DNA of 64,000 nucleotides from an uncultured bacterium. Lineage in GTDB: Bacteria; JAJVIF01; JAPKYR01. The notes below the pieces were generated by a model that worked only from the letters and a program-made list of their open reading frames with translations, ran no database searches and had not been told where the DNA came from. This document shows, piece by piece, positions 213-36,120 of the stretch (position 1 is the stretch's first letter; each line of letters starts with the position of its first letter). The DNA is taken from NCBI GenBank assembly GCA_965369865.1, contig CBDURU010000004.1, positions 7,201 to 71,200 of the forward strand, in the 5' to 3' direction. The position numbers were made by a program, and so were the translations under genes.

Positions 213-3203
213 TTGCAGGATTTCCTTTATATTTATATTATGCAGGATTTAATGACAACAATAAAATCCCGGAGTCATTGGGTACTCCAGACTGGTATCG
301 TCTCGATACTGGTCCTGCTCCTCTGCGGATGCTCCGGATCTGGGAAGCATGGTGATCCTATAACCCCTGCTGATCCAGGCTCGGATCAAAATATCGGACT
401 GTCGGATGGGATTCCAAATCCAGGCAACCGGTACACGCTGGGTGTCTGGGATTTTCATGTCGATCCGGCAACCCAGACAGTAACCGGGTCTCGAAGGCGT
501 AATGCGGACATGCATCTCAACATTGTCAGGCTCCTGGAGGAACAGTGCAGCGACTGCCTGAGGTTTGACAATTTCGATTTTTCAACGCCGGGTCAGTTAG
601 ATGTGGATATGACAATTAAACACCCTTTTGAAGGCAACCTGGCTCTGACAATATTCGATGTCCGGGGCATTTTTATAACTGATGATCATGAGGACCCATT
701 CATCAGATTTGCGTGGGGTGATGATTTACCTGTCCTTGTAAATCCCGATGGGTATACCTATCTTTTTAGTGAACAGAAATATCCATATAACCCGGATGAA
801 CCATCAATGCTGAATTATTATCCGGGCGTTTTTACCTTCGGGGAAGAGCGATCCGCAAAATTAAATGCTTTTTTAGCATATGGAAAAGATAGTCCGAGAA
901 GGATGTTCCTTCCGGGAACAGAGGAAACCCGAACTTTACAGATCGCGCTTCCTGGCATTCCATTTGATTTCGGATACGTAATAGATGTTTGCTGGGCTCT
1001 TCCGGATGCTGATCCTGTTGTTGATCCTGTGGATGATTTCCCCATTACCGCTAACTGCAATGAAGCATACAAACTTAATATCACTATTGGAGATGGTCTA
1101 ACAACAGCTCCTGGAAGTAAAGCGATAATCGAGGTAGAAATATTCGATCATCAGGGGCATGAAACCATAAGTTATTATTATAATTCTGATCATGATATAT
1201 TCATACCCCAGATAACTGGCCGGTTAATGCTTCCAGATGGCCCAGATATCTGGTACGCCTCACCAGGCATTGTTGATGAAAATCAATTTGAATTTTCTAA
1301 AGCAACCGGTGAAGACAGTTTTCAATTTACAGCTATAATTGAACAAGAGCTACAGTTATCGATTGAGGAAGGTCTTTACCCACTTGAAATTTATGTTTAT
1401 GATACGGTTGAAGATCCAAATCTTGGGTTCCACACAGCATCTAATGTAATTCCGGTATTTATTCCTGGGGGTGTCGACGCGCTACCGGTTGCCGAGGCAC
1501 TGGCGTATCCTGTCCCGCAGACAGTCGGGAAACCTGTTCAGTTTCGCAATAACGGTTCATACGATCCTGATGGCGGTGTAATTACGAAATTTGAGTGGGA
1601 CTGGGATATGGACGGGACGTTCGATGACGAGGGCAATCCGCTAAACCACATATTCGATACCCCTGGTCTCATCTACGTAAACCTTCGTGTAACCGACAAC
1701 GAGGGGTCGTCCCGAACGCTCTTTGAGCCTCTGGAAGTGATGATTAAGGAAGGCGAGGGCTGGGCGCGCACGTGGGGGGGTAGTTTTTCTGACTCTGCAT
1801 GGAATGTAGCTGTGGATAATGAAGGGAATATTTATGTGGTGGGTTATTATACAGCAACAACAGATTTTGATCCAAGTCCGTTTTTGGAAGCAATCAGGCA
1901 AAACTATGGTGAGGATAGCTCTGGATTTATCAGTAAATTTGGCAGAGATGGCCAATTCAAATGGGTACGAACAATGGGCGGATCTTACCAGGCATGGCCA
2001 CATTCACCCATTATAGGTGACAATGGCAACCTTTATTTAGTGGGTAAATTTTGGCCTACGTTGACTTTTGAGGGAGATCCAACACAGACTGAATATTTTT
2101 CCGGAAACGGAGGTGATGCTTTCCTGTGCTCTTACGGTAAGGCAGGTGAGTTCCAGTGGGCGATAACATGGGGAGGGGAAGGAAGTTTTTCAAATAGCGC
2201 AAATTGTCTTGATGGGGCTGGAAATATCTACATTGGAGGGACTTTTAGGGGAACCATCGACTTCGATCCTGGTCCTGGGATCGAGTTACATACAGCATCT
2301 AATGAACTTGATGCATACATTGAAAAACTAAGCCCCACGGGTGATTTTATCTGGGTAAGGACATGGGGATCAGAACCAACGGACCCACCTTCATCCTACT
2401 TAACAAGCCAGGTATATGAGATCGCAACTGATTCCAGTGATGCTGTGTATTGTACTGGTTACTTTAACGGGATTGTAGATTTTGATCCCGGCCCGGAAAC
2501 TGATTTCCATACAGCGACTGGCTTTCCCACGAATTTTAGAGAAGATGTCTTTCTGAGCAAGTTCACCAGCGATGGTGAATATCAATGGGTGAGAACGTGG
2601 GGAAACACCAAAGAGGACGAAGGATATGGGGTGGCTATAGATAGTAAAGATAATATTAGTGTTATTGGTTTTTTTCACAACACTGTGGACTTCGATCCCG
2701 GTCCGGGAGAATTTGAACTAACCTCAGCTTACTCTTATGGGACCTATAGCCCATTTATGAGCAGGTTTAATACTGAAGGTGATTTTATATGGGCTTTAAC
2801 CTGGGATGCCGGGGTGGACTGGCACTGGAGAGGATTATCAATCGCTCTTGATGCATGGGACAATATATTTGTTACAGGTATGTTTTGGCCAAGTGCTGAT
2901 TTCGACCCGGGACCCGGGATTGATGAGAGAACATCAAATGGTGGGAGGGATTATTACCTGAGTAAATTCAATGCTGACGGTGAGTTTTTATGGGTAGGGA
3001 CATGGGGAGGGCCAAGTTCGGAATACAATGGGCACGGGGTTGCTGTAGACTCACTTGGCTATGCAAGTGTTGTAGGTGGATTCCATAGTACTGCTGATTT
3101 CGACCCAGGTCCAGGTGAAGACTTACATTCGGTATACGAATATACCATTGGTGGAGCCGGTGATACATTCCTAACCAGGTTCCCCCCGGATGGCAATTGG
3201 TGA
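213..3203 (+). CDS. Secreted lipoprotein with about 9 beta-propeller (SBBP-type) repeats and a PKD domain
   Basis: 996 aa ORF. The N-terminus has a hydrophobic segment followed by lipobox LLLCGC-SGS. A roughly 45-55 aa motif containing DFDPGPG/DFDPSP and W(V/A)RTWGG recurs about 9 times, as in SBBP beta-propeller repeats. A PKD-like segment (YDPDGG...EWDWDMDGTFDDEGN...VTDNEGS) sits mid-protein. The true start is probably the internal Met at 240 or 252. Confidence 0.7.
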   Translation: MQDFLYIYIMQDLMTTIKSRSHWVLQTGIVSILVLLLCGCSGSGKHGDPITPADPGSDQNIGLSDGIPNPGNRYTLGVWDFHVDPATQTVTGSRRRNADMHLNIVRLLEEQCSDCLRFDNFDFSTPGQLDVDMTIKHPFEGNLALTIFDVRGIFITDDHEDPFIRFAWGDDLPVLVNPDGYTYLFSEQKYPYNPDEPSMLNYYPGVFTFGEERSAKLNAFLAYGKDSPRRMFLPGTEETRTLQIALPGIPFDFGYVIDVCWALPDADPVVDPVDDFPITANCNEAYKLNITIGDGLTTAPGSKAIIEVEIFDHQGHETISYYYNSDHDIFIPQITGRLMLPDGPDIWYASPGIVDENQFEFSKATGEDSFQFTAIIEQELQLSIEEGLYPLEIYVYDTVEDPNLGFHTASNVIPVFIPGGVDALPVAEALAYPVPQTVGKPVQFRNNGSYDPDGGVITKFEWDWDMDGTFDDEGNPLNHIFDTPGLIYVNLRVTDNEGSSRTLFEPLEVMIKEGEGWARTWGGSFSDSAWNVAVDNEGNIYVVGYYTATTDFDPSPFLEAIRQNYGEDSSGFISKFGRDGQFKWVRTMGGSYQAWPHSPIIGDNGNLYLVGKFWPTLTFEGDPTQTEYFSGNGGDAFLCSYGKAGEFQWAITWGGEGSFSNSANCLDGAGNIYIGGTFRGTIDFDPGPGIELHTASNELDAYIEKLSPTGDFIWVRTWGSEPTDPPSSYLTSQVYEIATDSSDAVYCTGYFNGIVDFDPGPETDFHTATGFPTNFREDVFLSKFTSDGEYQWVRTWGNTKEDEGYGVAIDSKDNISVIGFFHNTVDFDPGPGEFELTSAYSYGTYSPFMSRFNTEGDFIWALTWDAGVDWHWRGLSIALDAWDNIFVTGMFWPSADFDPGPGIDERTSNGGRDYYLSKFNADGEFLWVGTWGGPSSEYNGHGVAVDSLGYASVVGGFHSTADFDPGPGEDLHSVYEYTIGGAGDTFLTRFPPDGNW

Positions 3204-3282
3204 GGGAATGGCAGTAGTCCCCCCTGTACAGGCCAGGAACATCCTAAAATAAAAAAATACGTCGATTGTATGCGGGGTAGTT

Positions 3283-3440
3283 ATACCAATCTTAGATTCA
3301 GGGACGCCTTTCCATGCTTCCAGCGTTGAAGGTGTCCCGTGTAACTAAGAATTCATGGGGACACTTTCAACGCTGGAAGCATGGAAAAGCGTCCCCATGA
3401 ATTCTGGAAGCATGAAAAAGCGTCCCCATGAATTCAAAGC
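3283..3440. repeat. Dispersed intergenic repeat, expanded copy A, with a 37 bp inverted repeat (long hairpin) and a 32 bp tandem duplication
   Basis: The 33-mer TACCAATCTTAGATTCAGGGACGCCTTTCCATG and the 12-mer AATTCAAAGCGT flank about 115 bp of internal sequence here. The same two segments abut directly at 39413-39462. The insert contains GGACGCCTTTCCATGCTTCCAGCGTTGAAGGTGTCCC and its near-perfect reverse complement, plus two copies of CTGGAAGCATG(G/A)AAAAGCGTCCCCATGAATTC. Confidence 0.6.
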
Positions 3441-3443
3441 GTC

Positions 3444-4103
3444 TTATATATTCTGCTCAAATGCGGGGTTAAGAATGTAAAGCGCCTGCTCTACTGCCGC
3501 CTTAATATCCTCTGCTTCGCTAATCATGCTGACCGTCGCGATTCTCAGTGGTTTGATTACTCCCGCGAGGTCTTCGAGGTCTGAAAATTTGACACCCCCG
3601 AGGAAAAAAACAGGGACTTTAATCTTACCAAGGATATCCTTCGCGCCTTCGATCCCATGAGGTTCGTGCGGGGAATCCTTGTGGGAAAGCATGAACAGGG
3701 GGCTGTAGATAATGAAATCCGCTCCCATCCACGTTGCGGAAATTGCTTCCTCGACATTATGCGCTGAAAATCCGATAAGGAGGTCCATTCCCATGTGTTC
3801 CCTGACAACCTCTACCGGCAGATTGTTCACCCCGAGTTGAATCCCGTCCGCCCTGACAAGCGAAGCGATATCGAGCCGGTCGTTTACGATCAGTCCCGCT
3901 CCAACGTCATCACAAAGCTCCCTGACCTTAAGGCATTCGGTGTAAAAGTCTGCATCGTTCAGGTCCGGTTCGCGGTATTGAATCCACCTGCAGCCTCCAC
4001 GCAGGACGTCGGCAATGACCGAGAGATTATCACGCCCTTTGGAACGGTGCCGATCGGTGATAAACATAAGGGGATGCTCTCGGATAGATAGTGCTGGGAC
4101 CAA
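3444..4103 (-). CDS. thiE: Thiamine-phosphate synthase
   Basis: 219 aa. The N-terminus (LMFITD...) and the central and C-terminal regions (GADFIIYSP, GGVKFSDLEDLAGVIKPLRIATVS, LIVND...D) match the ThiE TIM-barrel family. Confidence 0.8.
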   Translation of the reverse strand: MVPALSIREHPLMFITDRHRSKGRDNLSVIADVLRGGCRWIQYREPDLNDADFYTECLKVRELCDDVGAGLIVNDRLDIASLVRADGIQLGVNNLPVEVVREHMGMDLLIGFSAHNVEEAISATWMGADFIIYSPLFMLSHKDSPHEPHGIEGAKDILGKIKVPVFFLGGVKFSDLEDLAGVIKPLRIATVSMISEAEDIKAAVEQALYILNPAFEQNI

Positions 4104-4202
4104 CGCTTCATCCTTTTTGGCGGAAATTTATCCCCGTTTACTTCCGCGTTTTAAATGAATCGATACTGGTAGCGGAAAAATTACTTAAAGAATGTTACCA
4201 GC

Positions 4203-4391
4203 CTATTTCTCCGTTATTTCAATTTCAAACTGCTTCTCTTCAAGATTCAGAAAAATCGAGAGTGCGTCCTTTGCGTTGGTGATCACTTCTTCCTTAGTGT
4301 CACCGTACGCGAAAAACCCGGGTGAATCAGGTGAGGTGGCCCACCAGTTATTTTCCAGGCTTTTTTCTATCATTACTTGTACTTTTTTCAT
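4203..4391 (-). CDS. HicB-like / UPF0150 family small protein, a possible orphan antitoxin
   Basis: 62 aa. The motif WWATSPDSPGFFAYGDTKEEVITNAKDALSIFLE resembles the UPF0150/HicB antitoxin fold. No HicA partner is visible. The start overlaps the ugd stop by 4 nt. Confidence 0.4.
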   Translation of the reverse strand: MKKVQVMIEKSLENNWWATSPDSPGFFAYGDTKEEVITNAKDALSIFLNLEEKQFEIEITEK

Positions 4392-5749
4392 CTGCCAACT
4401 CCAATTAATTTAAGACTTGCAGCTTCGAGTTTATCCCGATCGAGGCTGTTACGCCCATCGAAAATCACATTTCCATTCATAAGAGCAGCGATTTTATTCC
4501 AGTCGAGATCCATGAATTCGGGCCACTCGGTCACCAGGATGATAGCATCGGCATCCCGCGCGACCTCGTAGGGATCATCGAAATATTCACAGGAACTGAA
4601 CAGGTCCCTTGCGTTTGCGATTGCCTTTGGATCGGTTGCCCTCAGCCTGGCTCCGTCACGTTTCAGCTCACGCATCAGGTCGATTGCAGGGGCCTCTCTA
4701 ATATCATCGGTGCCGGGTTTGAAAGCGAGACCAAGAATTCCCAATGTTTTGCCGGATAAAGGTTCCAGTTTTCTGCGGATTTTCGCCAGGAACCGGTATC
4801 GCTGGATTCTGTTGACTTCTATGACGGCATTTAAAAGTGTAAAAGTGTAACCGCGGCTTCCCGCATGCTGGTGAAGCGCTTTAGTGTCCTTGGGGAAACA
4901 TGACCCGCCAAAACCGATCCCGGCCCTGAGAAACTGGGATCCGATCCGGGTATCAAGCCCGATTCCCCTGGCGACATCCCCGATATCCGCACCCACTTCC
5001 TCGCAAACATTTGCTATTTCGTTAATGAAACTGATTTTTGTCGCGAGGAACGCGTTGGATGCGTACTTTATCATCTCGGCCGACCTGGGTTTGGTTCTAA
5101 CTACTGGAACCGGATGGTGAAAATCGTGTGGGCGGGCGGGCCGTGGAGGTTCAGGTTCGAAATCCTGTTGAATCAGTTTTGCATACAGTTCATCAAGGAC
5201 ATTAAAAACGGTTTCATCGTCCGCACCGATAACAATCCGGTCCGGATAGAATGTATCTTGGATCGCCTGGCCTTCACGGAGGAATTCCGGATTGGACGCC
5301 ATCAGGAACGGTCCGGTAACCCTGGCTGAGAGACGCTCATGCAGGTAGTCCATCGTTCCCGACGGTACGGTGGATTTAATAACGACAACGGGAACACCGG
5401 CATCGGGATTACGGGATTTCAGGGATTCAGCAACCGATTCGATCGCTCCCTCAAGTTGCGAAAGATCGATCTGCCATGTCTCATTTGTAGGCGTGCCGAC
5501 AGTAAGAAATATTACTTCCGCGTCCCTGCACCCCTCGTTACATTCACCGGTGAATGACAGCCGTCCGGCGGAGATGTTTTCACTCAGCATCTCCTGCATG
5601 GATGCCTCGTAAATAGGACACTGGCCGTTCTTGAGTTTTGAGAGTTTGTCAGGATCGATCTCGACGCCTATTATCTCGTGCCCGAGATCGGCAAGTACGA
5701 CACTGGTTGCGAGACCGACATATCCGCATCCGATTACGGCAACTTTCAT
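4388..5749 (-). CDS. ugd: UDP-glucose 6-dehydrogenase
   Basis: 453 aa. It has an N-terminal Rossmann motif (VIGCGYVGL), the catalytic region GFGGSCFPKD and the UDPG_MGDP_dh C-terminal domain. Confidence 0.9.
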   Translation of the reverse strand: MKVAVIGCGYVGLATSVVLADLGHEIIGVEIDPDKLSKLKNGQCPIYEASMQEMLSENISAGRLSFTGECNEGCRDAEVIFLTVGTPTNETWQIDLSQLEGAIESVAESLKSRNPDAGVPVVVIKSTVPSGTMDYLHERLSARVTGPFLMASNPEFLREGQAIQDTFYPDRIVIGADDETVFNVLDELYAKLIQQDFEPEPPRPARPHDFHHPVPVVRTKPRSAEMIKYASNAFLATKISFINEIANVCEEVGADIGDVARGIGLDTRIGSQFLRAGIGFGGSCFPKDTKALHQHAGSRGYTFTLLNAVIEVNRIQRYRFLAKIRRKLEPLSGKTLGILGLAFKPGTDDIREAPAIDLMRELKRDGARLRATDPKAIANARDLFSSCEYFDDPYEVARDADAIILVTEWPEFMDLDWNKIAALMNGNVIFDGRNSLDRDKLEAASLKLIGVGR

Positions 5750-5826
5750 TCATGGATTGTAGCATTGCAGAGGGACATGGGGGAAGATTAATGTTGATGT
5801 AATTAAAAAATGGGGGAAAAATGAAT

Positions 5827-7401
5827 TTAGTGGCCAAGGTCTGCCAGGTTGAAGCCGGGATGTTTCCATCCAAGGATATCAAGTTTTTCCGAATCGATAT
5901 CGCCGGTTTCCAGCATGTTTTTAAGTAAGTTGCTTGACCTGATATGTTCCGCGAGCCTGGTTGAAGCGTAACCGGTTTGTGTTCCGGTGTGCATGATAAA
6001 CGGCCAGTCGGAGCTTTCGAGAAACAGAAGCTCCCTTTCAAACTGGATGAGCGCCTTTTTGATCTCAGGATCGGCGGTGTCCCTGTGCTTATCCTTGAGT
6101 TTTCGAAGGTGGCGATTTAGCCCGTAAATGTGAGGGTAGACCCATTCCGCCTGGTCCGATCCCCAAACCTCGCCGTAACCGCCGTCGCCCCATGATGAGT
6201 GGGCGGGTATACCCTTACGTGTTTCCCCGCCAGCCCTGATATAATCGGATCCGGTGCAGGCAGCCACATCCTCAAGGTTATTGATCTCCCTGAAGACTTC
6301 GCCGAGCCAGTGGATTCCCTCGAACCACCAGTGCCCGAAGAGTTCAGCGTCATATGGGCAGACGATCAGCGGGGTTTTCATACCACATTCGCCAAGCCAC
6401 CACAATCGACCCTTTATCCGGTTGGCGAAATCATACGCGTGGTCGTGCGCGATCGCTTTTGCTTTCTCGAAGTCATATGGTTCCTTGTGCTCGGTTTCGC
6501 CGGTAATCCGGTGATACTTGATCCCGGTGAAAGTGTGCGCGACCGCGGGCGGCAGGTAGGGTCTGACGATATCAGCGGGAAGGTCGAAGCCGACGTCACG
6601 ATAGAAATCACGGTACCAGTAGTGGCCTGGATACCCTTCCTCGGCACTCCATACGGCTTTGGATGTCTCGCGGTCGCGTCCGAACGCAACCGGTCCGGCG
6701 GGGGTTACCAGAGGCATATGCACTTCGTCATGCGAGGGGGTTACTCCGGGAGAAGCAAGTTCAATTCCGTGGGATTCAACGAAGGTAAATTCTATTCCTT
6801 CATTTGCCAGGATATTTTCTAATCCGGGAATGAAACCGCACTCCGGGAGCCAGATACCGCGGGGTCGACGACCGAGGATCCTTTCGTGGACCCTGCATCC
6901 GACAGCCACCTGGCGTTCGACCGATCCGGGTGACATCATGAGGTGCGGAAGGAACCCGTGGGTTGCCGAGCAGGTAATGATCTCGATCTGTCCCGTGGAT
7001 TCCAATGCCTTGAATGCGCGAATTAATCCGCCATGGCCATCGAGCACATCCCGTATCGCACTAAATCGTTCGCGATACATCTTTACAAGGGGACGGAACG
7101 GGTCGTTGAGGTTCGAGTGGCGTTCCGCTTCTTCATCGAGGAGTTTAAGCCGCGACTCGACATAGCGGATCGTGCGGTCGTGAAGAAGCTTATCCTCAAG
7201 CATAAGGAGAAGAGTGGGCGAGAGAGTCAAAGTCAGGCGTACGGGAATATTGTCGCGTCTCAGTTCCTCAAGGGTGATAACCAGAGGCACGTAAGTTTCG
7301 CATACAGCCTCGAACAGCCATTGTTCCTCCAGGAAATTATTCCACTCGGGATGGCGTACGTAGGGAAGGTGTGCGTGCAACGCTAGTAAAATCGATTTCA
7401 T
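5827..7401 (-). CDS. GH57-family 1,4-alpha-glucan branching enzyme
   Basis: 524 aa. The N-terminal LALHAHLPYVRH motif is typical of GH57 branching enzymes. The gene lies in an operon arrangement with glgA and glgC. Confidence 0.75.
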   Translation of the reverse strand: MKSILLALHAHLPYVRHPEWNNFLEEQWLFEAVCETYVPLVITLEELRRDNIPVRLTLTLSPTLLLMLEDKLLHDRTIRYVESRLKLLDEEAERHSNLNDPFRPLVKMYRERFSAIRDVLDGHGGLIRAFKALESTGQIEIITCSATHGFLPHLMMSPGSVERQVAVGCRVHERILGRRPRGIWLPECGFIPGLENILANEGIEFTFVESHGIELASPGVTPSHDEVHMPLVTPAGPVAFGRDRETSKAVWSAEEGYPGHYWYRDFYRDVGFDLPADIVRPYLPPAVAHTFTGIKYHRITGETEHKEPYDFEKAKAIAHDHAYDFANRIKGRLWWLGECGMKTPLIVCPYDAELFGHWWFEGIHWLGEVFREINNLEDVAACTGSDYIRAGGETRKGIPAHSSWGDGGYGEVWGSDQAEWVYPHIYGLNRHLRKLKDKHRDTADPEIKKALIQFERELLFLESSDWPFIMHTGTQTGYASTRLAEHIRSSNLLKNMLETGDIDSEKLDILGWKHPGFNLADLGH

Positions 7402-7403
7402 AA

Positions 7404-8888
7404 TTATTGCCGGATCATCGAATTATACAGTTTTAAATATTTTTTAGCCTGGGAAGGCCAACTGAAGTCTTTCTTCATACCTGTAATCATAAGTTCTTTC
7501 CAGGCGTCGGGATCGTTGCGGAACATCTGAGCGGCTTTCTTGATTGCGTTGATTACGCTGTTACCGCTGAATGCTTTCATAACGAACCCGGTCGCCTTGC
7601 CGGCTTTCAGTTTTGCCGATGTTGCATTTTCAACGGTGTCCTTGAGTCCGCCGGTCGATGAGACGATCGGGACTGTGCCGTACCTCAGGCTGTAAAGCTG
7701 GTTAAGGCCGCACGGCTCATACCTTGAGGGCATGAGGAAAATATCGCTCCCGGCCTCAATTTTGTGCGCAAGCTCGTTTGAGAATGCGAGATTTACTGAA
7801 ATATGCTCCGGATATTTCTTCGCGGCTTCCGAAAGCAACTGGTGGTACCTTTCATCGCCCGTGCCGAGAATAACCATCTGGCAGTCGAGTTTTACGATTT
7901 TTTTAAGCGTTTCCAGTACGAGTTCAAAACCCTTCTGCTCCGCGAGCCTGGAGATCATGCCGATCAACGGACCCCGGCCGTCGGGAAGCCCGACTTCGTC
8001 TCGCAAGGCTTTCCGGCATTTCCATTTCCCGCTGAGATTTTTATGTGAATATTTCTCTGGTATGAAATTATCTTTTGACGGGTCCCATATATTGTAATCG
8101 ACACCGTTGAGCAGGCCCGAGAGTTTATCCGCCCTCGATTTCAGGACACCATCGAGGCCCGCACCGAATTCGGCTGTCTGGATTTCCTTTGAATATGTCG
8201 GGCTGACCGTTGTAATGTGGTCGGCGAAAATAATTCCGCCTTTCAACAAGTTGAACTGTCCGAAATATTCAAGTCCGTCGACTGAAAAGAGATCCCAGGG
8301 AAGGTCGAGCGCAGGATATTTATCCGCGGGAAAACGTCCCTGGTACCCTAGATTATGGATTGTAAGGACCGAACGGGTGTCTTTAAAAAACTTGTCGTCC
8401 CTGTAATGAGTTTTGAGGAAAATTACCGCACAGGCGGCTTGCCAGTCGTGGGCATGGAGAATATCGGGTTTGATTTCGAGTTTCTTGCATGCCTCAAGCC
8501 CGGCCTTCGCGAAAACACCGAACCTGGTGGCGTTGTCCTCGTAATCCGTGCCCCCTTCGGTGTAAAGCTCCTCACGATCGTAAGCGGACGGGTAATCGAT
8601 AAACAGCACCCGCATGCCCGATTCATGCTTCAATTCACGAACGCACGCTTCCCCGGTGTATCCGGGAAGGAAAAATGGAAGTGTTGAATCTTCGATAATT
8701 TCAGGCTCGTTTCCGGATTTCTCCGCCCATTCCATGACCTTCCGGTAGTAGGGAAGAAAAACTGTGACGTTATTGCCCAGGTTTGACAGCTCAACCGGTA
8801 ATGCGCCAATTACATCGGCGAGACCGCCGGTCTTACAGTATGGAACCATTTCACTGGCCATGAACACGATTTCAGATGTTCGAGGCAT
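7404..8888 (-). CDS. glgA: Glycogen synthase (ADP-glucose type, GT5)
   Basis: 494 aa. The KTGGLADV motif is near the N-terminus and the GT5/GT1 C-terminal domain is present. It overlaps glgC by 17 nt. Confidence 0.9.
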   Translation of the reverse strand: MPRTSEIVFMASEMVPYCKTGGLADVIGALPVELSNLGNNVTVFLPYYRKVMEWAEKSGNEPEIIEDSTLPFFLPGYTGEACVRELKHESGMRVLFIDYPSAYDREELYTEGGTDYEDNATRFGVFAKAGLEACKKLEIKPDILHAHDWQAACAVIFLKTHYRDDKFFKDTRSVLTIHNLGYQGRFPADKYPALDLPWDLFSVDGLEYFGQFNLLKGGIIFADHITTVSPTYSKEIQTAEFGAGLDGVLKSRADKLSGLLNGVDYNIWDPSKDNFIPEKYSHKNLSGKWKCRKALRDEVGLPDGRGPLIGMISRLAEQKGFELVLETLKKIVKLDCQMVILGTGDERYHQLLSEAAKKYPEHISVNLAFSNELAHKIEAGSDIFLMPSRYEPCGLNQLYSLRYGTVPIVSSTGGLKDTVENATSAKLKAGKATGFVMKAFSGNSVINAIKKAAQMFRNDPDAWKELMITGMKKDFSWPSQAKKYLKLYNSMIRQ

Positions 8889-14436: not shown

Positions 14437-15315
14437 ATGGCTGAAAACATTCGCAAATTTGAAAAAGATGGTCATCGAATTTATCATGGTGATGCCACAG
14501 TAGTTCTTAGGACTGAGATTGCATCTGATTCCATTGACTTGATCTTTCTTGATCCACCCTACAATATAGGAAAGCAATTTGCTGGGTTTCATGATAAATG
14601 GCCATCAGATAAATCCTATGCGGAATGGGCCTATGAGTGGTTGGATGAATGTATCAGAATTTTGAAGCCCAATGGTTCTTTATATGCAATGACGAGCACT
14701 CAGGCCATGCCATATTTCGATCTCTATCTGAGAGATAAATTGACAGTAATTAGCAGGATAGTTTGGCATTATGATAGTTCCGGTGTTCAAGCTAAAAGAA
14801 CATTCGGCTCACTCTACGAACCCATCCTTCATGGTGTTAAAAATCCGAAGCAATACATTTTTAATTCGGATGCAATTAAAATTGAAGCCAAAACAGGCGC
14901 ACAGCGGAAATTAATCGATTACAGGAAAGAAGTACCAACCCAATATAATACTGAGAAAGTTCCAGGCAATGTTTGGTATTTTCCTCGCGTCAGGTATCGC
15001 ATGGATGAGTACGAGAACCATCCTTCTCAGAAACCAGAAGCTTTGCTGAAAAGAATTATCCTTGCAAGCAGCAACGAAAACGGCATTGTGCTTGATCCGT
15101 TTGCAGGAACTTTTACTACCGGTGCAGTATCACGTTTATTAAATCGAAAATCTATTAGCGTGGAGTCACAAGAAGAGTACTTAATGATTGGATTGCGAAG
15201 AGTACTTAAATTGAATTCCTATAAAGATGAAGCCCTTAAATCTCCAGTAAAAGACTATTCCAAAAAGAAAACAGAAAATGAGTTGACGGGAGGCTTGTTC
15301 AATGCCATCAGTTAA
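14437..15315 (+). CDS. DNA methyltransferase, beta class (N6-adenine or N4-cytosine), the R-M modification subunit
   Basis: 292 aa. Motif IV (DPPYN) precedes motif I (LDPFAGTFTTG), the beta-class order. The gene is AT-rich relative to its neighbours. Confidence 0.85.
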   Translation: MAENIRKFEKDGHRIYHGDATVVLRTEIASDSIDLIFLDPPYNIGKQFAGFHDKWPSDKSYAEWAYEWLDECIRILKPNGSLYAMTSTQAMPYFDLYLRDKLTVISRIVWHYDSSGVQAKRTFGSLYEPILHGVKNPKQYIFNSDAIKIEAKTGAQRKLIDYRKEVPTQYNTEKVPGNVWYFPRVRYRMDEYENHPSQKPEALLKRIILASSNENGIVLDPFAGTFTTGAVSRLLNRKSISVESQEEYLMIGLRRVLKLNSYKDEALKSPVKDYSKKKTENELTGGLFNAIS

Positions 15316-16450
15316 ACATGATTTTACACAGACAATTATCCGTATCTTAGAAGAGCATTTCCCAGGTCATGGTGAGCAGTTACTAGATAACAGCGAACTG
15401 CTACAGTACATAAACATAAAGGCAAAGGCGGCTAATCGTGGATCGAAATCAAGAAGCGGCTTTGCCAATCACTATGCTATATATGTGCTGATCGAAGATT
15501 ATTTAAATCATGGATTTAATGAGAGTGACGACTACACTAAATATGAGGGAGCGCAATATAGCAGACTCTTAAACCGACAACGTGAACTTCCGTTTGGCAG
15601 CAAGCTGCAGAATCATGCCCTAAATCATAGGTTAAACGAAGAATTTCATAAATATTTCCCCACTTCTACTCATGTAATAATAATTAGAGACGTTGAAACC
15701 AGTCGCTATTGGATTAATGAAAAATTGCTGCAAGTGAAACTTGGGAAAACTGTTTATAAAATAGCACCGGCCGTTAAAGCAATTATTGATGCCTATATCG
15801 AAGCAAGGTCTAGGTCCTTCGATGAATTTATGGGTTACTGCGAAGAGATAATGAAATTAGAGAAAGATGACGCCGATAAAGCCATTGAATTTGTCAAAGG
15901 GTTATTGAAACCAAATATCGATGCGCGTATTTTTGAAATAGTCAGTTATGCAATATTGAGGGAATTTTATTCTGACCAGAAAATATATTGGGGCTGGTCA
16001 CCGGATGAAATTAATCCTGAATTCTTGGTCTTATACAAGACAGGCAGGACTAATGCTAATGATGGCGGAATCGATTTTGTGATGAAGCCTCTGGGGCGTT
16101 TTTTTCAGGTAACTGAAACAGTTGATGCAGGCAAGTATTTTCTTGATATTGATAAGGTTCAAAGATACCCGATTACTTTTGTCGTAAAAACCGAGCAGTC
16201 TGTCGAAGAAATTAAAAATAAAATCAAGGAGCAAGCTATTGAAAAATACGGGATAGTCGCTATCGTTGAGAAGTATATGACTTCGGTTGAGGAAGTAATT
16301 AATATAGCAGAGCTCATGTTAAGATTTGACGAAGTATTGAAAAATAATAAACTGCATGTGACTATTGAGGAAATTATTCTCCAGAGCAAAGTTGAATTTA
16401 ATATTGATATTGAAGATGATAGCTTGGAGGATGAATCTGAAGATCAATAG
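15302..16450 (+). CDS. Putative type II restriction endonuclease with a PD-(D/E)xK Mrr-like catalytic region
   Basis: 382 aa. It overlaps the methyltransferase by 14 nt on the same strand and is AT-rich. The C-terminal segment (TGRTNANDGGIDFVMKP...FFQVTETVDAGK) resembles the Mrr_cat signature. Confidence 0.5.
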   Translation: MPSVKHDFTQTIIRILEEHFPGHGEQLLDNSELLQYINIKAKAANRGSKSRSGFANHYAIYVLIEDYLNHGFNESDDYTKYEGAQYSRLLNRQRELPFGSKLQNHALNHRLNEEFHKYFPTSTHVIIIRDVETSRYWINEKLLQVKLGKTVYKIAPAVKAIIDAYIEARSRSFDEFMGYCEEIMKLEKDDADKAIEFVKGLLKPNIDARIFEIVSYAILREFYSDQKIYWGWSPDEINPEFLVLYKTGRTNANDGGIDFVMKPLGRFFQVTETVDAGKYFLDIDKVQRYPITFVVKTEQSVEEIKNKIKEQAIEKYGIVAIVEKYMTSVEEVINIAELMLRFDEVLKNNKLHVTIEEIILQSKVEFNIDIEDDSLEDESEDQ

Positions 16451-30892: not shown

Positions 30893-31021
30893 ACAATCCT
30901 CCGTGAACGGATAAATATACCAGACATTAACCTGTGAATGTACCCGCCAGCTTACCGCATTTGGCTATTAACTGAATTGTCCAATCCGTTCGTGAATGAT
31001 AGAATACGCTTGGTTCCAACT

Positions 31022-31807
31022 ATGAAACTTTCCGTAATCATACCTGTTTACAATGAAGAATCCACTGTAGGTGAACTCCTGGAAAAAGTATTGGCTGTCG
31101 ATATCCCGAAGGAAGTAATAGTGGTCGATGACGGCAGCCGCGATTCGTCGATTGATATTGTAAGGGACAAGGCGGCACACACCGACCAGGTGATAAAAGT
31201 CCGGTCACACGAGGTTAATGTCGGGAAAGGGGCCGCCATCCGCATGGGAATACTTCATGCGACCGGCGATGTTGTACTTATCCAGGACGCGGACCTCGAA
31301 CTCGACCCGAAGGAATACCACATGCTGATAGCTCCGTTTAAGTCGGGTGTCGCGGATGTGGTCTACGGATCGAGATTCCGTAACAGGGGATATTTCTGGC
31401 ATTACAGGCAGGTTCCGTTTTTTTCAAGATTAGTAAATTTTCTACTCGCATTAACGGTCAATTTGTTCTGGTGGAAGGCGAAAATCACCGATGAAGCTAC
31501 CGCGTACAAGGTTTTCAGGACCGACCTTCTCAAATCATTACCTCTGAAATGCAACGGGTTTGAATTCTGTCCCGAGGTCACCGCGCTGATTCTCAACCGG
31601 GGTATTAATATCAGGGAAGTTCCAATCACCTATCATCCAAGGACGGTCGAGGAAGGGAAGAAGGTCACATGGAAGGACGGCGTAAAAGCTTTCTGGACCC
31701 TGTTCAAGTACAGATTCCTCGAACGGGAAGATGTACGGGCACCTGATAAAATTCAAAAACCCGAAAGCGAGTCGGAAGATAACTCAGATGAAATTCATTT
31801 TGAGTAG
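31022..31807 (+). CDS. Family 2 glycosyltransferase (dolichyl-phosphate/polyprenol-phosphate sugar transferase-like)
   Basis: The GT2 N-terminus is MKLSVIIPVYNEE...VVDDGSRDSS with a DAD motif (IQDADLE). The start is set at the internal Met 31022; the listed ORF begins at 30938. Confidence 0.75.
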   Translation: MKLSVIIPVYNEESTVGELLEKVLAVDIPKEVIVVDDGSRDSSIDIVRDKAAHTDQVIKVRSHEVNVGKGAAIRMGILHATGDVVLIQDADLELDPKEYHMLIAPFKSGVADVVYGSRFRNRGYFWHYRQVPFFSRLVNFLLALTVNLFWWKAKITDEATAYKVFRTDLLKSLPLKCNGFEFCPEVTALILNRGINIREVPITYHPRTVEEGKKVTWKDGVKAFWTLFKYRFLEREDVRAPDKIQKPESESEDNSDEIHFE

Positions 31808-31920
31808 GAGAGGGGGTATGTCAAAGTTAACTTATTAGAATTTATATTTTAAATAGTTTTGTTTTTAGTTATACTTATACCAGATAATCAAAAAATTTCT
31901 TCTGTACAGTAGGAATTGGC

Positions 31921-32583
31921 ATGGATAATTTTAATGGAAATCACGACAGTCCTTCCCCAACCGAAAAACCTACAGTAGAAAAACAAAGCCCACCACCAGA
32001 TTTTATAGAATTTTACAGGAATATTCCGAATGAAAATCTTAAGAAAATATTCTTGGGGGCAATCCTAGTCCTGTATTCAAAGAACGATGATAAAATTGCT
32101 TTGGCTTCACATGGTTTTAGGGAGTTCATGGACCATTTCCCTGGAGAAATGGGAAAAATTCCTTATCAATCAATAACTGACACAATTGAAGAAATTAAGA
32201 AACCAGTAAAATCATGGAAGAAATTAGGAGGAGAAACAACTAAAGAAAAAGTACTAGAATCAATGGTAGATTATTTAAATTTTTTAAATATATGGAAGGC
32301 TTTTTATAAATGGTTTGAAGGTGGATATATTGCTCAAACTGATCGATGGATCCAAGCAAGTATTAATATTGATCCATCATTGGAAGAAGTTCCGGATGAT
32401 TACCACGACAGCCAAATCAAACAAATCGTAAAATTAAAAAAATTTTTTATAGATGCGCTCCATCATAAGAAGGACCCAAGTTTTGATGAAATGATCAAAT
32501 ATATCCGATGGTTAACACGACTCTACAAACTTTTACTACAAGCAAAAAAAAATAATCTAGATAAAGAAGAAGGTGCAATATAA
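31921..32583 (+). CDS. Hypothetical Lys-rich protein, first gene of the AT-rich two-gene island
   Basis: 220 aa with no recognisable motif. Its TAA stop overlaps the ATG of the next gene (TAATG). It is strongly AT-rich relative to flanking genes. Confidence 0.5.
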   Translation: MDNFNGNHDSPSPTEKPTVEKQSPPPDFIEFYRNIPNENLKKIFLGAILVLYSKNDDKIALASHGFREFMDHFPGEMGKIPYQSITDTIEEIKKPVKSWKKLGGETTKEKVLESMVDYLNFLNIWKAFYKWFEGGYIAQTDRWIQASINIDPSLEEVPDDYHDSQIKQIVKLKKFFIDALHHKKDPSFDEMIKYIRWLTRLYKLLLQAKKNNLDKEEGAI

Positions 32584-35366
32584 TGCCTTCAAGCAAGGAT
32601 ATTTTTAAGCAAATATCTCAGCTCAATACAGACGCTGAGAAAGCATTTTTTGTGAATCAAATTTCAACGCCCGAATATTTACCTGTGCTGAGGGATCTAG
32701 GATTTTTTTCCACTCCACCCTTACCTATTAAAGATGATAAAGGCGTTAAATTTGAATTATGGTATGCATCTCGCTATCTCTTAAGAATTGCTGATAAAGC
32801 GCCTGCAGAGGTTATGGCGGTAGCGAAGGAAATTCCAGAAACTGAAAATTTTCGAGTACACGAGGATATTCTCGATATTTTAATCAAGATTCCAATCACA
32901 TTTGCCCTTGAATTTCTAACAATAGACAAAGCAAAATATTTCCTTGAGAATCCATACAATTATCAAGCTCCTGATAAGATATCTGAAATTATCAGGGGGG
33001 CCGCCCTTGCAAATCACCCTGATGAAGCTCTCAATCTTGCTGAGTTAGTATTTGTAATTACCTGGCAATCTAAATTTTCAGAATTTGACGGTGAGGAGGT
33101 TGATATTGGGAATTTATTTCCTAAATTCTTTAGATCTGGAGGAAGTTATGATTTTGAAAAACAAATTCGTGCATGCAGGATTCCCCTTATTGATTGTGCC
33201 GGATTTAAAGCTGTCAGGTTCTTTCTGGATTTACTCAGCAAAGCAATCTCTATTTCAAAAAACAAAGGCAAAACAGAATACTCGTGGGTATGGCTTCCAG
33301 CAATTGAGGAGCACGAGCAGAACGCAAGTTCAGGACTCGAAGCTGTTCTTGCAGCAAATGCAAGAGATACACTTGAGTATGTTTTCGAAATAAACCCAGT
33401 TTGGTTAGATAAAGCCCGTGAATTGCTGAGCAGATATAAGCACATTATTTTTAAGAGATTGGATTTACACATTCTAAGGCTTTTCGCTGAACAGAATAAA
33501 GCGGATGTAGTTAATCGACTTCTGGATAAGGAATTATTTAAAAATCCAGCTTGTTATCACGAGTACACACTTCTATTACATGAGCAGTATTCTAATCTCA
33601 AACCTGTGAACCAAAACAAGTTTCTCAATTTCATTGCTGAAATTGAAGGGGATTATATAGAATCTACTCAGTTTAAATGGTTGGATTTAATTAAGAATCA
33701 CCTGAAAAATAATTGGTTAAAAAAATATAAAACGTTGCAGCAAAAATATGGAGACCCTCCTTTCCCGACTTTTCTAAGTTATACAGAATCCGGACCTTGG
33801 TCAGGTCCAACTAGTCCTCTTGAAGATTTGTCCTCAATGACAGTAAAAGAAATTACTGATTTCCTTCAAACATGGAAACCTAGTGGTGAGAGGACATGGC
33901 CTCCTGAGCCATCTGCAGTAGGGTTGGGAAGGCAGCTAAAGAATGAAATTGTAGAACAACCCGTAAAATTTGCTAAAAATGCTGCAATGTTTATAGGTGT
34001 GAACCCAAAATTCCTTATACATGTCTTTTTTGGATTTCAGAATGCTGTCAAGGGCCAGGAAAAATTTGAGTGGGATAGCATCCTGGAGCTTTGCCTGACG
34101 ATAGCGAAGGGAGATTCTGGTAATTTACTTTCGGATGCAAGCACCTTATCTGAAGCCCGAAAACATGCGGCTGGCCTTTTAAAAGAAGGATTCAACAAAG
34201 GTGTGAATGAGATCCCATATAAATACAAAAAAATATCCTGGGATATCCTTGTACACCTAGCAAAAGATCCTGATCCATCACCATCTGATGAGCAAGGCTC
34301 TGGAATGGGTCCATCTCTGCAAGCCATTAACTCAGCTCGCGGCACAGCGATTGAAGCAGTAATCCTTTATGGTATTTGGCACTGGCGCAATCTCCAGGAA
34401 GTGGATAAATGGCGAGGTGTTGAATCAATACCTGAAGTTAGAGAATTACTTGAATCTCATCTCGATCCCAAAATTGACCCCTCACCCGCAATTCGCTCTG
34501 TATATGGTATATATTTCCCCTGGTTCGAAGGAATGGACAATGCCTGGGCTAAGAAAGTTGTAGATATAATATTTCCATTGGATAAAGATCAGGTACTTTT
34601 CAATGCTGCATGGGAAACATATATTTCATACAACCATGTTTATAATAATGCAGCAATGATTTTAACAACTCGGTATGAAAAGGCAATTAGGAACCTTGAA
34701 GTATTTGATAAAGATAATGTCACAATAGGTGACCCTGAAGCAAGGCTCGCAGAACACATGATAGTCATGTACGAACGAGACTTGATAGGCGAACCAGACG
34801 GAGACAGCCTATTCAAATTGTTTTGGGATTATGCACCTCTCTCTGTAAGAAAGCACGCTATTTCCTCAACAGGGATTTCTCTAAGCAATACAGAAGGTGA
34901 AGTTCCAGAACAAATAAGAGAAAAATTAATCAATCTAATCAAATTCAGGATTGGAGTATTAAAGGATAAACCACTCAATGACCGGTTTGAATTAACAGGT
35001 TTTCAGGAATGGTTTAACAGTGAGAAATTCGATATGAGTTGGGCGATTGCCAGTTTGTTAAAAATTCTAGAACTTACTGAAGGTCAACTTGAGCATGGAT
35101 GGGTAACTGTAAAAAAATTGGTTGAAATCGCAGACCAATATCCTGAGCAAGTAATTAAATGTCTTTCATTAATCCTCCTCAATGATACAAGTGGATGGGT
35201 AGTTATGGGTTCTGGAAGGGAAGTAGTCCCAGCATTATTAGAGATAAAAAATAAATCTTCGGAAATAAAGCAGCTTGTAGAAGAACTTGGTGAAAGTCTG
35301 TTTCAGCAAAAGAGATTTGAGTATGCAGATCTTATGGATAAGAGTAAACTAATAATCCCTGACTAA
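32583..35366 (+). CDS. Large hypothetical alpha-helical protein (927 aa), second gene of the AT-rich island
   Basis: Long uninterrupted ORF, AT-rich, with helical-repeat-like composition. No P-loop, nuclease or other catalytic signature was recognised. Confidence 0.5.
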   Translation: MPSSKDIFKQISQLNTDAEKAFFVNQISTPEYLPVLRDLGFFSTPPLPIKDDKGVKFELWYASRYLLRIADKAPAEVMAVAKEIPETENFRVHEDILDILIKIPITFALEFLTIDKAKYFLENPYNYQAPDKISEIIRGAALANHPDEALNLAELVFVITWQSKFSEFDGEEVDIGNLFPKFFRSGGSYDFEKQIRACRIPLIDCAGFKAVRFFLDLLSKAISISKNKGKTEYSWVWLPAIEEHEQNASSGLEAVLAANARDTLEYVFEINPVWLDKARELLSRYKHIIFKRLDLHILRLFAEQNKADVVNRLLDKELFKNPACYHEYTLLLHEQYSNLKPVNQNKFLNFIAEIEGDYIESTQFKWLDLIKNHLKNNWLKKYKTLQQKYGDPPFPTFLSYTESGPWSGPTSPLEDLSSMTVKEITDFLQTWKPSGERTWPPEPSAVGLGRQLKNEIVEQPVKFAKNAAMFIGVNPKFLIHVFFGFQNAVKGQEKFEWDSILELCLTIAKGDSGNLLSDASTLSEARKHAAGLLKEGFNKGVNEIPYKYKKISWDILVHLAKDPDPSPSDEQGSGMGPSLQAINSARGTAIEAVILYGIWHWRNLQEVDKWRGVESIPEVRELLESHLDPKIDPSPAIRSVYGIYFPWFEGMDNAWAKKVVDIIFPLDKDQVLFNAAWETYISYNHVYNNAAMILTTRYEKAIRNLEVFDKDNVTIGDPEARLAEHMIVMYERDLIGEPDGDSLFKLFWDYAPLSVRKHAISSTGISLSNTEGEVPEQIREKLINLIKFRIGVLKDKPLNDRFELTGFQEWFNSEKFDMSWAIASLLKILELTEGQLEHGWVTVKKLVEIADQYPEQVIKCLSLILLNDTSGWVVMGSGREVVPALLEIKNKSSEIKQLVEELGESLFQQKRFEYADLMDKSKLIIPD

Positions 35367-35400
35367 ACTGACTGAAATAAGGAAGAATTCCTATACCTTT

Positions 35401-36120
35401 CTAACTCAACTCAAACACCAGTGTTATTGACATCGACAAAGTTTCTCGTTCTGTCTCAGGGGGGATTGGATCGAATGGAGCCGCGTTACGGACCGCATTG
35501 ATCGCCGCACTGTCAAGACGATCGAATCCAGACGATGCCGATATCGAAACCGAGGATAATTCCCCGTTGGACGCGACCATAAAATTTATAGTCGCTGTGC
35601 CTGTTTCGCCCAAACGCCGGCTGACCTGAGGGAATTCCTTAGCCGCCTGAATTTTGCTCTTAACCGAAGCGGCATAATCGGCAAGCAATGTATCAATATC
35701 GATTTCAGGTTCCGGTTCAGGAGGTGTTATAGGAATTTCGTCCGAAGAACCATCAATTTCTTCGACGGACACCTGTTCATTTTCCAAATCACCGTTTTGC
35801 ACATCATTTTCTGAAGATTCATCACCGACAGCTTCAGCTTCTATCTCTGTTGCTACCACTTCGGTAACTTCTGTAACTTGATTAACCGGTTCGGGTTCAG
35901 GCTGCGATTGCTCTCGTACCGGCTCTCTTACTGGTTCAGGAGGGATTTCCGGCTCTGGCACTATTGCCGAAGGTTCTGGCTCATTGAGAGTTATCAGAAT
36001 TTCGGTAGTGACCGGTATATTCAGCGTGTCCGGGAGTTTCACCGAAAACAAGAGAATTATGTGCACAAGGATCGAAACAACCAGCAGAACCCATCGCCAA
36101 TTTTTAAACAGTCCAGTCAT
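35401..36120 (-). CDS. tonB: TonB-family energy transducer
   Basis: 239 aa. An N-terminal TM anchor is followed by a Pro/Glu-rich spacer (EPEIPPEPVREPVREQSQPEPEP) and a C-terminal TonB domain. It lies downstream of exbB-exbD. Confidence 0.7.
   Translation of the reverse strand: MTGLFKNWRWVLLVVSILVHIILLFSVKLPDTLNIPVTTEILITLNEPEPSAIVPEPEIPPEPVREPVREQSQPEPEPVNQVTEVTEVVATEIEAEAVGDESSENDVQNGDLENEQVSVEEIDGSSDEIPITPPEPEPEIDIDTLLADYAASVKSKIQAAKEFPQVSRRLGETGTATINFMVASNGELSSVSISASSGFDRLDSAAINAVRNAAPFDPIPPETERETLSMSITLVFELS

Follow-up and report, generated by a model that had tools for sequence, protein, structure and literature searches.

The question raised by the locus studied here is what function is served by two tightly coupled genes that form an AT-rich island in a 64,000-nucleotide stretch of DNA from an uncultured bacterium (contig CBDURU010000004.1; this whole stretch is called the window below). 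Our analysis indicates that the island is probably a horizontally acquired anti-phage module of the abortive-infection type, resembling the defence protein Dsr1 with its parts split over two genes and its effector swapped. Exactly two long co-directional open reading frames (ORFs), termed ORF A and ORF B, lie between a GT2 glycosyltransferase gene and a convergent tonB gene:

31921-32583, + strand: ORF A, 220 amino acids, all-alpha partner and candidate effector with N55, H64-x2-R67-E68 and H181-H182
32581-32585, + strand: TAATG stop/start overlap of A and B with one shared base, as read from the sequence (TAA of A, 32581-32583; ATG of B, 32583-32585)
32583-35366, + strand: ORF B, 927 amino acids, stand-alone alpha-solenoid and homologue of the part of Dsr1 that follows SIR2, according to a PADLOC profile match

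ORF B matches the sensor region of Dsr1

Dsr1 is defence-associated sirtuin 1 (Gao et al. 2020; Garb et al. 2022). The PADLOC model of this protein (PDLC04166) matched ORF B with an E-value of 8e-40 (134.5 bits), residues 86-730 of B being aligned to profile positions 414-1040 of 1227, and the region of the model matched in this way is only the part after the N-terminal SIR2 (NADase) domain. An earlier note on this DNA had seen no recognisable family in either protein; this description must be dropped for B, and A also shows the weak family matches described below. Seven tested relatives of B matched the same model between positions 288 and 1218 of 1227. Among them, P0020 aligned through its residues 18-959 to profile positions 301-1213, and P0020, L100 and L094 together span positions 301-1218. 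Because the relatives cover positions 288-1218, the B family is, judging from these profile alignments, the entire non-SIR2 part of Dsr1 encoded as a gene of its own. B itself is not a Dsr1, since its score against the NCBIfam equivalog model (NF041818) is 19.4 bits, compared with a cut-off of 1400.

A Pfam scan of B found no domain. The AlphaFold2 model of B is an all-alpha solenoid (predicted local distance difference test score, pLDDT, 85), in agreement with the all-alpha helical-repeat scaffold that had been proposed from the sequence. Foldseek comparison of this model with the PDB returned generic HEAT/ARM solenoids, the highest template modelling score (TM-score; 0.37) being that of the sensor of Avs4, which binds the phage portal; the matches in the PDB copy searched included no structure of Dsr1 or Avs7. 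Sequence searches of the PDB with A, B and the A3 profile gave nothing but spurious matches to helical or de novo designed proteins. A word-index protein search recovered 23 homologues of B, and 383 relatives were found in metagenome contigs and confirmed by tblastn.

These data show that B is a member of the Dsr1/Avs7 sensor superfamily, a bilobed alpha-solenoid that carries neither a SIR2 domain nor a STAND (signal transduction ATPases with numerous domains) NTPase domain. A recent survey reported that the Avs7 sensor is common to Dsr1 and other non-STAND proteins, that the effectors on these non-STAND proteins include NADase, nuclease, kinase and HEPN-like domains, and that SeAvs7 and EcDsr1 have the same trigger, the phage major capsid protein (Lee et al., Nature 2026, PMC13581612; preprint PMC12803255). 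According to its methods, split proteins were considered in that survey (PMC13581612).

Some sensor homologues bear extra N-terminal modules: HTH_3 in P0004 (1310 amino acids), and DUF2283 followed by a pP_pnuc_1-like motif in P0023 (1253 amino acids). Partial matches to B (43-62% coverage) were also seen on haloarchaeal plasmids of Halocatena, Natronorubrum, Haloferax and Halapricum, in proteins annotated as 'ATP-binding protein' or 'AAA family ATPase'; these may represent Avs7-type STAND proteins of archaea that share this sensor.

ORF A fills the slot held by SIR2 in related systems

The slot upstream of the sensor was surveyed at 88 loci, namely the window and 87 related loci (L003-L009 and L090-L169), with the following contents:

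46/88 loci: separate A-family gene of ~220-280 amino acids, detected with a hidden Markov model built from the remote homologues of A (E 1e-10 to 1e-94)
25/88 loci: N-terminal fused domain of 165-257 amino acids, mostly ~170, in the same ORF as the sensor
10/88 loci: separate gene of ~300-330 amino acids (SIR2 class)
6/88 loci: without upstream DNA
1/88 loci: unclear slot

Pfam SIR2_2 was present in 9/9 scanned upstream genes of ~300-330 amino acids, and the tenth, at L008, duplicates L007. Dereplication at 90% identity left 73 clusters, of which 42 are A-type, about 15 fused and 9 of the ~300-330-residue class. An A-family gene usually overlaps the start of the B-family gene, with 29 nt and 8 nt as the commonest candidate overlaps, and all related loci that were classified have a Dsr1-type sensor as its partner. 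The linkage also holds in the opposite direction: P0026 and P0036, which were recovered solely through their homology to A, each have behind them an overlapping B-like gene of 948-970 amino acids, and the gene after the A homologue at L176 is 30% identical to B over the full length (E = 2e-119). A and B thus form a conserved two-gene module with reciprocal linkage, and the tight coupling which the TAATG overlap had suggested recurs, usually as an overlap, in 46/88 loci.

In P0031 (1144 amino acids), P0007, P0023 and P0098, the A domain is fused to the N-terminus of the sensor. The fused ~170-residue domain has no Pfam match of its own; when compared by hhalign with the N-terminal motif region of A, it gave a probability of 76% (E = 2e-5). 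Its motifs are VAHLLREIE and LHxxAHRR, and inspection of both alignments places its H-x2-R-E and AH(H/R)R in correspondence with those of A. Because A, SIR2 and the fused domain alternate upstream of the sensor, A is, as far as these gene arrangements tell, the occupant of the slot that SIR2 holds in Dsr1 and in its 'split Dsr1' relatives. We therefore read A as the candidate effector of the pair, because it takes the SIR2 position and is fused to the sensor N-terminus in relatives.

ORF A belongs to a divergent family with a conserved putative active site

A word-indexed homology search with ORF A recovered only A itself. Full phmmer retrieved 84 proteins at E <= 1e-3, which are ~25% identical and mostly 212-250 amino acids long, and the identity of A to any homologue is at most 26%. 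An alignment of 63 family sequences, only ~22% identical to A, showed that R67 is invariant and that N55, H64, E68, W99, F128, P158, F176, H181 and H182 are each kept in at least 90% of the sequences, giving the consensus motifs NPDRxALAAHxxRELMEK and FxxVAHHR. ORF A retains all the conserved polar residues (N55, H64, R67, E68, H181 and H182). Since they persist among sequences only ~22% identical to A, an invariant Arg together with a near-invariant His, Glu and His-His would suit an active or ligand-binding site better than a docking surface.

The AlphaFold2 model of A is all-alpha with nine helices (pLDDT 89), a fold that may be loosely HEPN-like, and its comparison with the PDB by Foldseek gave no significant match. 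A is Lys-rich (12.3%), and a P-loop scan (GxxxxGK[ST]) found no match in either A or B; both features agree with what the earlier note had described. The closest named family is Pfam PF18165 (pP_pnuc_1, 'predicted pPIWI-associating nuclease'), to which A aligns at E = 0.02 over profile positions 4-42 of 133. The same family is matched below threshold by 56/63 A-family members (E <= 0.1, best 4.6e-6) over profile positions ~4-50 of 133, as well as by the L003 partner (7e-4) and by the N-termini of P0007 and P0023 (3e-5). In addition, PADLOC Aga_Nuclease is matched by 29/63 members at profile positions 13-50 of 267. The profile matches to pP_pnuc_1 indicate a remote, partial relationship rather than membership. 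A literature search for pP_pnuc_1 or PF18165 found no description, and the 2013 pPIWI-RE paper does not describe this domain. Agap-HEPN (PMC11162769) was considered as a relative of A and set aside: it has the canonical R-x4-H motif, and no link to A was found. A tblastn search of plasmids with a typical A member gave no match.

A more specific proposal is one that we hold only tentatively and at somewhat less than even chances: the A family and the fused ~170-residue domain may be an uncharacterised enzymatic effector, a non-canonical HEPN-like helical nuclease with H-x2-R-E plus HH/HR as its active site, that is interchangeable with SIR2 in at least two unrelated sensor systems, Dsr1/Avs7-type sensors and Argonautes. 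In the sensor clade it is commoner than SIR2 (46 A-type plus 25 fused loci versus 10 SIR2 loci, of 88), so the 'sirtuin' system would be the less frequent form within a larger family.

The composition of the island is foreign, and the pair is missing beside the GT2 gene of relatives

The remaining features of the island and its borders are as follows:

30938-31807, + strand: GT2 gene, upstream flank of the island
31808-31920, + strand: AT-rich upstream intergenic region, 113 bp, GC (guanine plus cytosine) 0.27
31848-31875, + strand: match to a sigma-70-like consensus, which is a consensus match only and not evidence of function
35367-35400, no strand: spacer from the stop of B to the stop of tonB, 34 bp
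35401-36120, - strand: convergent tonB gene, followed by ExbD and ExbB

The 113-bp intergenic region contains 12 sigma-70-like sites, compared with 12.8 expected from shuffles; promoter and terminator scans around the island performed no better than on shuffled sequence, and a scan of the 34-bp spacer for terminator-like hairpins found none. The coordinates confirm the arrangement given by the earlier note, that is, two co-directional ORFs joined by a one-base TAATG overlap between GT2 and the convergent tonB. Its estimate by eye of a far more AT-rich segment is borne out by measurement as well. The island (31921-35366) has a GC content of 0.371, whereas non-overlapping windows of the same size in the rest of the 64 kb have a mean of 0.487 (standard deviation 0.022; z = -5.2), the lowest of them reaching 0.416. 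The 1-kb windows over 32-35 kb show 0.335, 0.376 and 0.404, versus ~0.48 elsewhere, and the GC content at third codon positions is 0.249 for A and 0.309 for B, compared with 0.425-0.614 in nine neighbouring genes. The island is therefore compositionally foreign. The identical A-B pair is present on 4 contigs read from several sources.

In the window, the pair is preceded by genes for AddAB, HflX, a cupin, HutI and GT2, and followed by those for TonB, ExbD, ExbB, an MFS transporter and AlaRS. The best match to GT2 in the genome collection is 53% identical and comes from an Ignavibacteriales metagenome-assembled genome, with no close relative there. Among metagenome contigs there are relatives whose GT2 is 80-84% identical; they keep the divergent HutI-GT2 arrangement and differ in the downstream genes, and both the A-B pair and the adjacent TonB are absent from them. 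A clean empty site was not demonstrated in these relatives. The pair is not core to the lineage, because it is missing beside the 80-84% identical GT2, which also speaks against the housekeeping role that the earlier note had named as the finding that would overturn its view. The composition anomaly and this absence agree with a foreign, horizontally acquired pair, as had been proposed.

The site downstream of HutI-GT2 looks like a variable spot in the lineage. It holds differing genes in the relatives (L170/L171, 9002-12021; L172, 8796-9836; L174, 8972-11416), among them a gene for a 939-residue protein, an ADP-ribosylglycohydrolase gene, and a DUF3795 gene with others. The 939-residue protein of L170/L171, which has no Pfam match, was considered as a relative of B and proved unrelated to it.

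Related loci are frequently linked to type I restriction-modification genes

The TonB/GT2 context of the window is shared by 0/87 related loci examined. Instead, 24 related loci lie directly 3' of co-directional hsdM and/or hsdS genes of type I restriction-modification (R-M) systems. Among loci with at least 1 kb of upstream DNA, such linkage was found in 21/54, or 5/26 for the A-type, 14/20 for the fused and 2/8 for the SIR2-type. Locus L092 (span 1712-7880) is an example:

1712-3220: hsdM
3213-4328: hsdS
4325-5011: A
from 4983: B

Such a position behind hsdM-hsdS, with abutting or overlapping ends, was noted at L092, L004, L090, L093, L094, L096, L097, L099, L100, L103, L104, L106, L112, L115, L116, L118, L119, L121, L144, L147, L152 and L160. 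This placement of the B-family module, with any of the three partner types, recalls prrC-like genes embedded in hsd loci.

Other related loci have mobile or defence-like surroundings. L006 and L007 adjoin methyltransferase, NERD, AAA_15/21, GIY-YIG and integrase genes, and homologues on Legionella and Streptomyces plasmids adjoin insertion sequence (IS) or Tn7-like genes. On the Legionella pneumophila conjugative plasmid NZ_CP016871.1 (L179, 4001-7834), a homologue of B, aligned with it as two pieces (25% identity, 97% coverage), is apparently interrupted by an IS3 transposase gene, with IS256 copies flanking it. On the plasmid NZ_CP108116.1 of Streptomyces sp. NBC_00212 (L178, 3395-6667), the 1090-residue 'hypothetical protein' WP_331721222.1 is encoded next to genes for TniB, a Mu-transposase (Tn7-like) and two 'ATP-binding proteins'. 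This protein carries the fused ~170-residue H-x2-R-E / AHR domain before the sensor (E = 2e-43 to the A4 profile).

Comparison with known systems

The island shares with Dsr1 the sensor region and the arrangement of an upstream or N-terminal effector followed by a large alpha-solenoid sensor, and sister loci of the island carry a SIR2 gene in the place of A. It differs from Dsr1 in having no SIR2 domain (Pfam SIR2 and SIR2_2 are unmatched in A and B), in being split over two genes and in placing a helical protein in the effector slot; capsid-protein activation and anti-phage activity have been established only in the case of EcDsr1 (PMC13581612). The 'HEPN-like RNase-containing protein' of Streptomyces sp. 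NBC_00271, which belongs to the same sensor superfamily, is similar in that a helical HEPN-like N-terminal module replaces SIR2, whereas ORF A is longer (~220-250 amino acids in this family) and encoded by a separate gene (Lee et al. 2026, Extended Data Fig. 2). That protein is represented by an AlphaFold3 model only, and a defence or trigger assay is not reported for it there. Compared by description, the architecture of WP_331721222.1 is probably that of the NBC_00271 protein. With Avs7 the island has in common a homologous sensor fold (Lee et al.) and, presumably, a phage structural protein as the trigger. However, A and B have no NTPase domain in Pfam and no P-loop, and they are much smaller proteins, so that the NTPase-driven tetramerisation of Avs7 cannot apply as such to an A-B system.

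The effectors associated with prokaryotic Argonautes (pAgo) provide another comparison. They share with A the ~40-residue helix hairpin motif ending in AH-x2-RE, with weak but recurrent matches, and in both types of system a module with this motif alternates with SIR2 as the sensor partner. Unlike these effectors, A matches their profiles below the curated cut-offs and only in the N-terminal part, it has no PD-(D/E)XK domain, and the island has no Argonaute gene next to it. In long-B pAgo systems, the N-terminal alpha-helical domain of bAgaN binds the sensor and relieves autoinhibition (PMC10620215, PMC13535254). In EcbAgaN, catalysis resides in a separate PD-(D/E)XK domain (PMC13535254).

A further class to be compared is that of the HEPN RNases. 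In these, the core is a four-helix up-down bundle and the canonical motif is Rx4-6H, which is not conserved in the A family: its conserved His residues are H64, lying three positions before the Arg rather than after it, H181 and H182. Defence effectors with HEPN RNase activity include PrrC, embedded in a type I R-M locus, Csm6, Cas13 and AbiF (Anantharaman et al. 2013).

Proposed mechanism and alternative explanations

If the island is a Dsr1-like defence module, translational coupling would allow A to be made in a fixed proportion to B. A would dock on the N-terminal end of B and stay inactive until B binds a phage structural protein, which may be the major capsid protein, as it is for E. coli Dsr1 and for Avs7. 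Binding of this presumed trigger could then cause a conformational change or oligomerisation of B and thereby activate A, whose H-x2-R-E and HH residues would carry out a toxic reaction, most likely the cleavage of RNA or DNA, so that phage production stops. The defensive role, the trigger, the binding of A to B and the nuclease activity of A are all predicted steps of this scheme.

Several findings weigh against reading the island as such a module. The activity, the interaction and the phage phenotype of this locus, as of all A-type systems, are predictions. In the window the pair is flanked by housekeeping genes and not by a defence island, and searches at the island boundaries detected neither direct repeats on the flanks nor a tRNA, an integrase or any Rfam family. 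The PADLOC match of this particular B is limited to residues 86-730. The pP_pnuc_1 score of A is 14.9 bits, compared with a gathering cut-off of 26.3, and the pP_pnuc_1 and Aga_Nuclease matches cover only the ~40-residue motif. The canonical HEPN motif was rejected for the A family, as position R67+5 is K in 51/63 members and H in 2/63; ORF A is one of these two, and its R-x4-H pattern is a chance one. ORF A also deviates at three near-invariant positions (P56D, E199T and P208A).

These observations leave room for other explanations. One keeps the defence module and makes A a non-catalytic adaptor or switch, modelled on the N-terminal domain of bAgaN, that couples B to a host factor or to its own oligomerisation. 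The only named similarities of A are indeed to the N-terminal ~40 residues of pAgo-associated proteins (pP_pnuc_1 4-50, Aga_Nuclease 13-50); the non-toxic N-terminal helical switch of EcbAgaN, which binds the Argonaute sensor, is ~220 residues long, the size of A (PMC13535254); A lacks a canonical HEPN motif and a significant Foldseek neighbour; and the host protein EF-Tu is reported to act as a scaffold for SeAvs7, a precedent for host factors in this sensor family (PMC12803255). An adaptor, however, would need an effector elsewhere. No conserved third gene was found for that role, the only recurrent neighbours being hsdM/hsdS (in the 5/26 A-type loci counted above), and B, which is all-alpha and in its relatives follows the Dsr1 sensor profile end to end, has no room for an enzymatic domain. 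As A also stands exactly where sister systems have their SIR2 enzyme, and as its invariant Arg and near-invariant His, Glu and His-His look more like a site than like a docking surface, we consider a purely adaptor role rather unlikely. It appears quite improbable that the pair, though horizontally acquired, does something other than defend against phages, for example as a toxin-antitoxin or addiction pair, or as a scaffold tied to the envelope and TonB genes. Such a role would suit the neighbours GT2, TonB, ExbB and ExbD in the window, the A-type loci L003 and L005, which also lie among housekeeping genes, and the fact that the A-type clade is known from sequence alone. In contrast, the sensor to which B is homologous has been found in no proteins other than those of defence (Dsr1 and Avs7), the slot of A is taken by SIR2 at some loci, related loci frequently follow type I R-M genes, and linkage to TonB/GT2 is conserved neither in the relatives with an 80-84% identical GT2 nor in the 87 related loci.

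It is very improbable that the island is what remains of a defence system that has decayed or lost its activity as its small protein drifted. ORF A is a family outlier, recovered only by full phmmer at no more than the identity given above, and carries the three substitutions just mentioned; yet neither ORF is truncated or interrupted, their coupling overlap is still in place, all the candidate catalytic residues of A are retained, the AlphaFold2 models of A and B are confident, and the identical pair occurs on several contigs. A horizontally acquired, Dsr1-like anti-phage module with A as its putative effector is thus the explanation that we favour. The defence-pair reading offered in the earlier note remains the best one in view of the homology to the Dsr1 sensor, the SIR2 gene in the slot of 10 loci and the R-M genes at 24 loci, but the system is not wholly novel. 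It is a variant of a kind already known, with an experimentally uncharacterised A-type protein as its putative effector: proteins that join this sensor to effectors other than SIR2, among them a 'HEPN-like' one and split forms, have been surveyed by Lee et al. (PMC13581612).

Implications

If the favoured reading is correct, a Dsr1-type sensor of phage proteins would also exist as a stand-alone subunit that pairs in trans with different effectors, and its commonest partner in environmental bacteria would be an unstudied helical family rather than the sirtuin from which the system takes its name. The pair would offer a compact two-gene system for asking how a separate effector is switched on by a sensor that has no NTPase, and what chemistry is performed by the H-x2-R-E / HH module, which seemingly also occurs beside Argonautes. 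It would also add to the defence genes that are known to lie behind type I R-M operons. This would not be a new principle, since the modularity of sensors and effectors and the swapping of effectors are well established and the sensor superfamily was recently surveyed; the A-type effector and the arrangement of sensor and effector in trans are so far known from genes alone.

A second AT-rich patch in the window

Another AT-rich patch of the window lies at 14437-16450 on the + strand (GC 0.38-0.41). It encodes an N6_N4 DNA methylase of 292 amino acids (Pfam E = 5e-55), the end of which overlaps a 382-residue ORF without a Pfam match (15302-16450, + strand). This patch looks like a type II R-M pair and, as such, like a second horizontally acquired defence module in the window.

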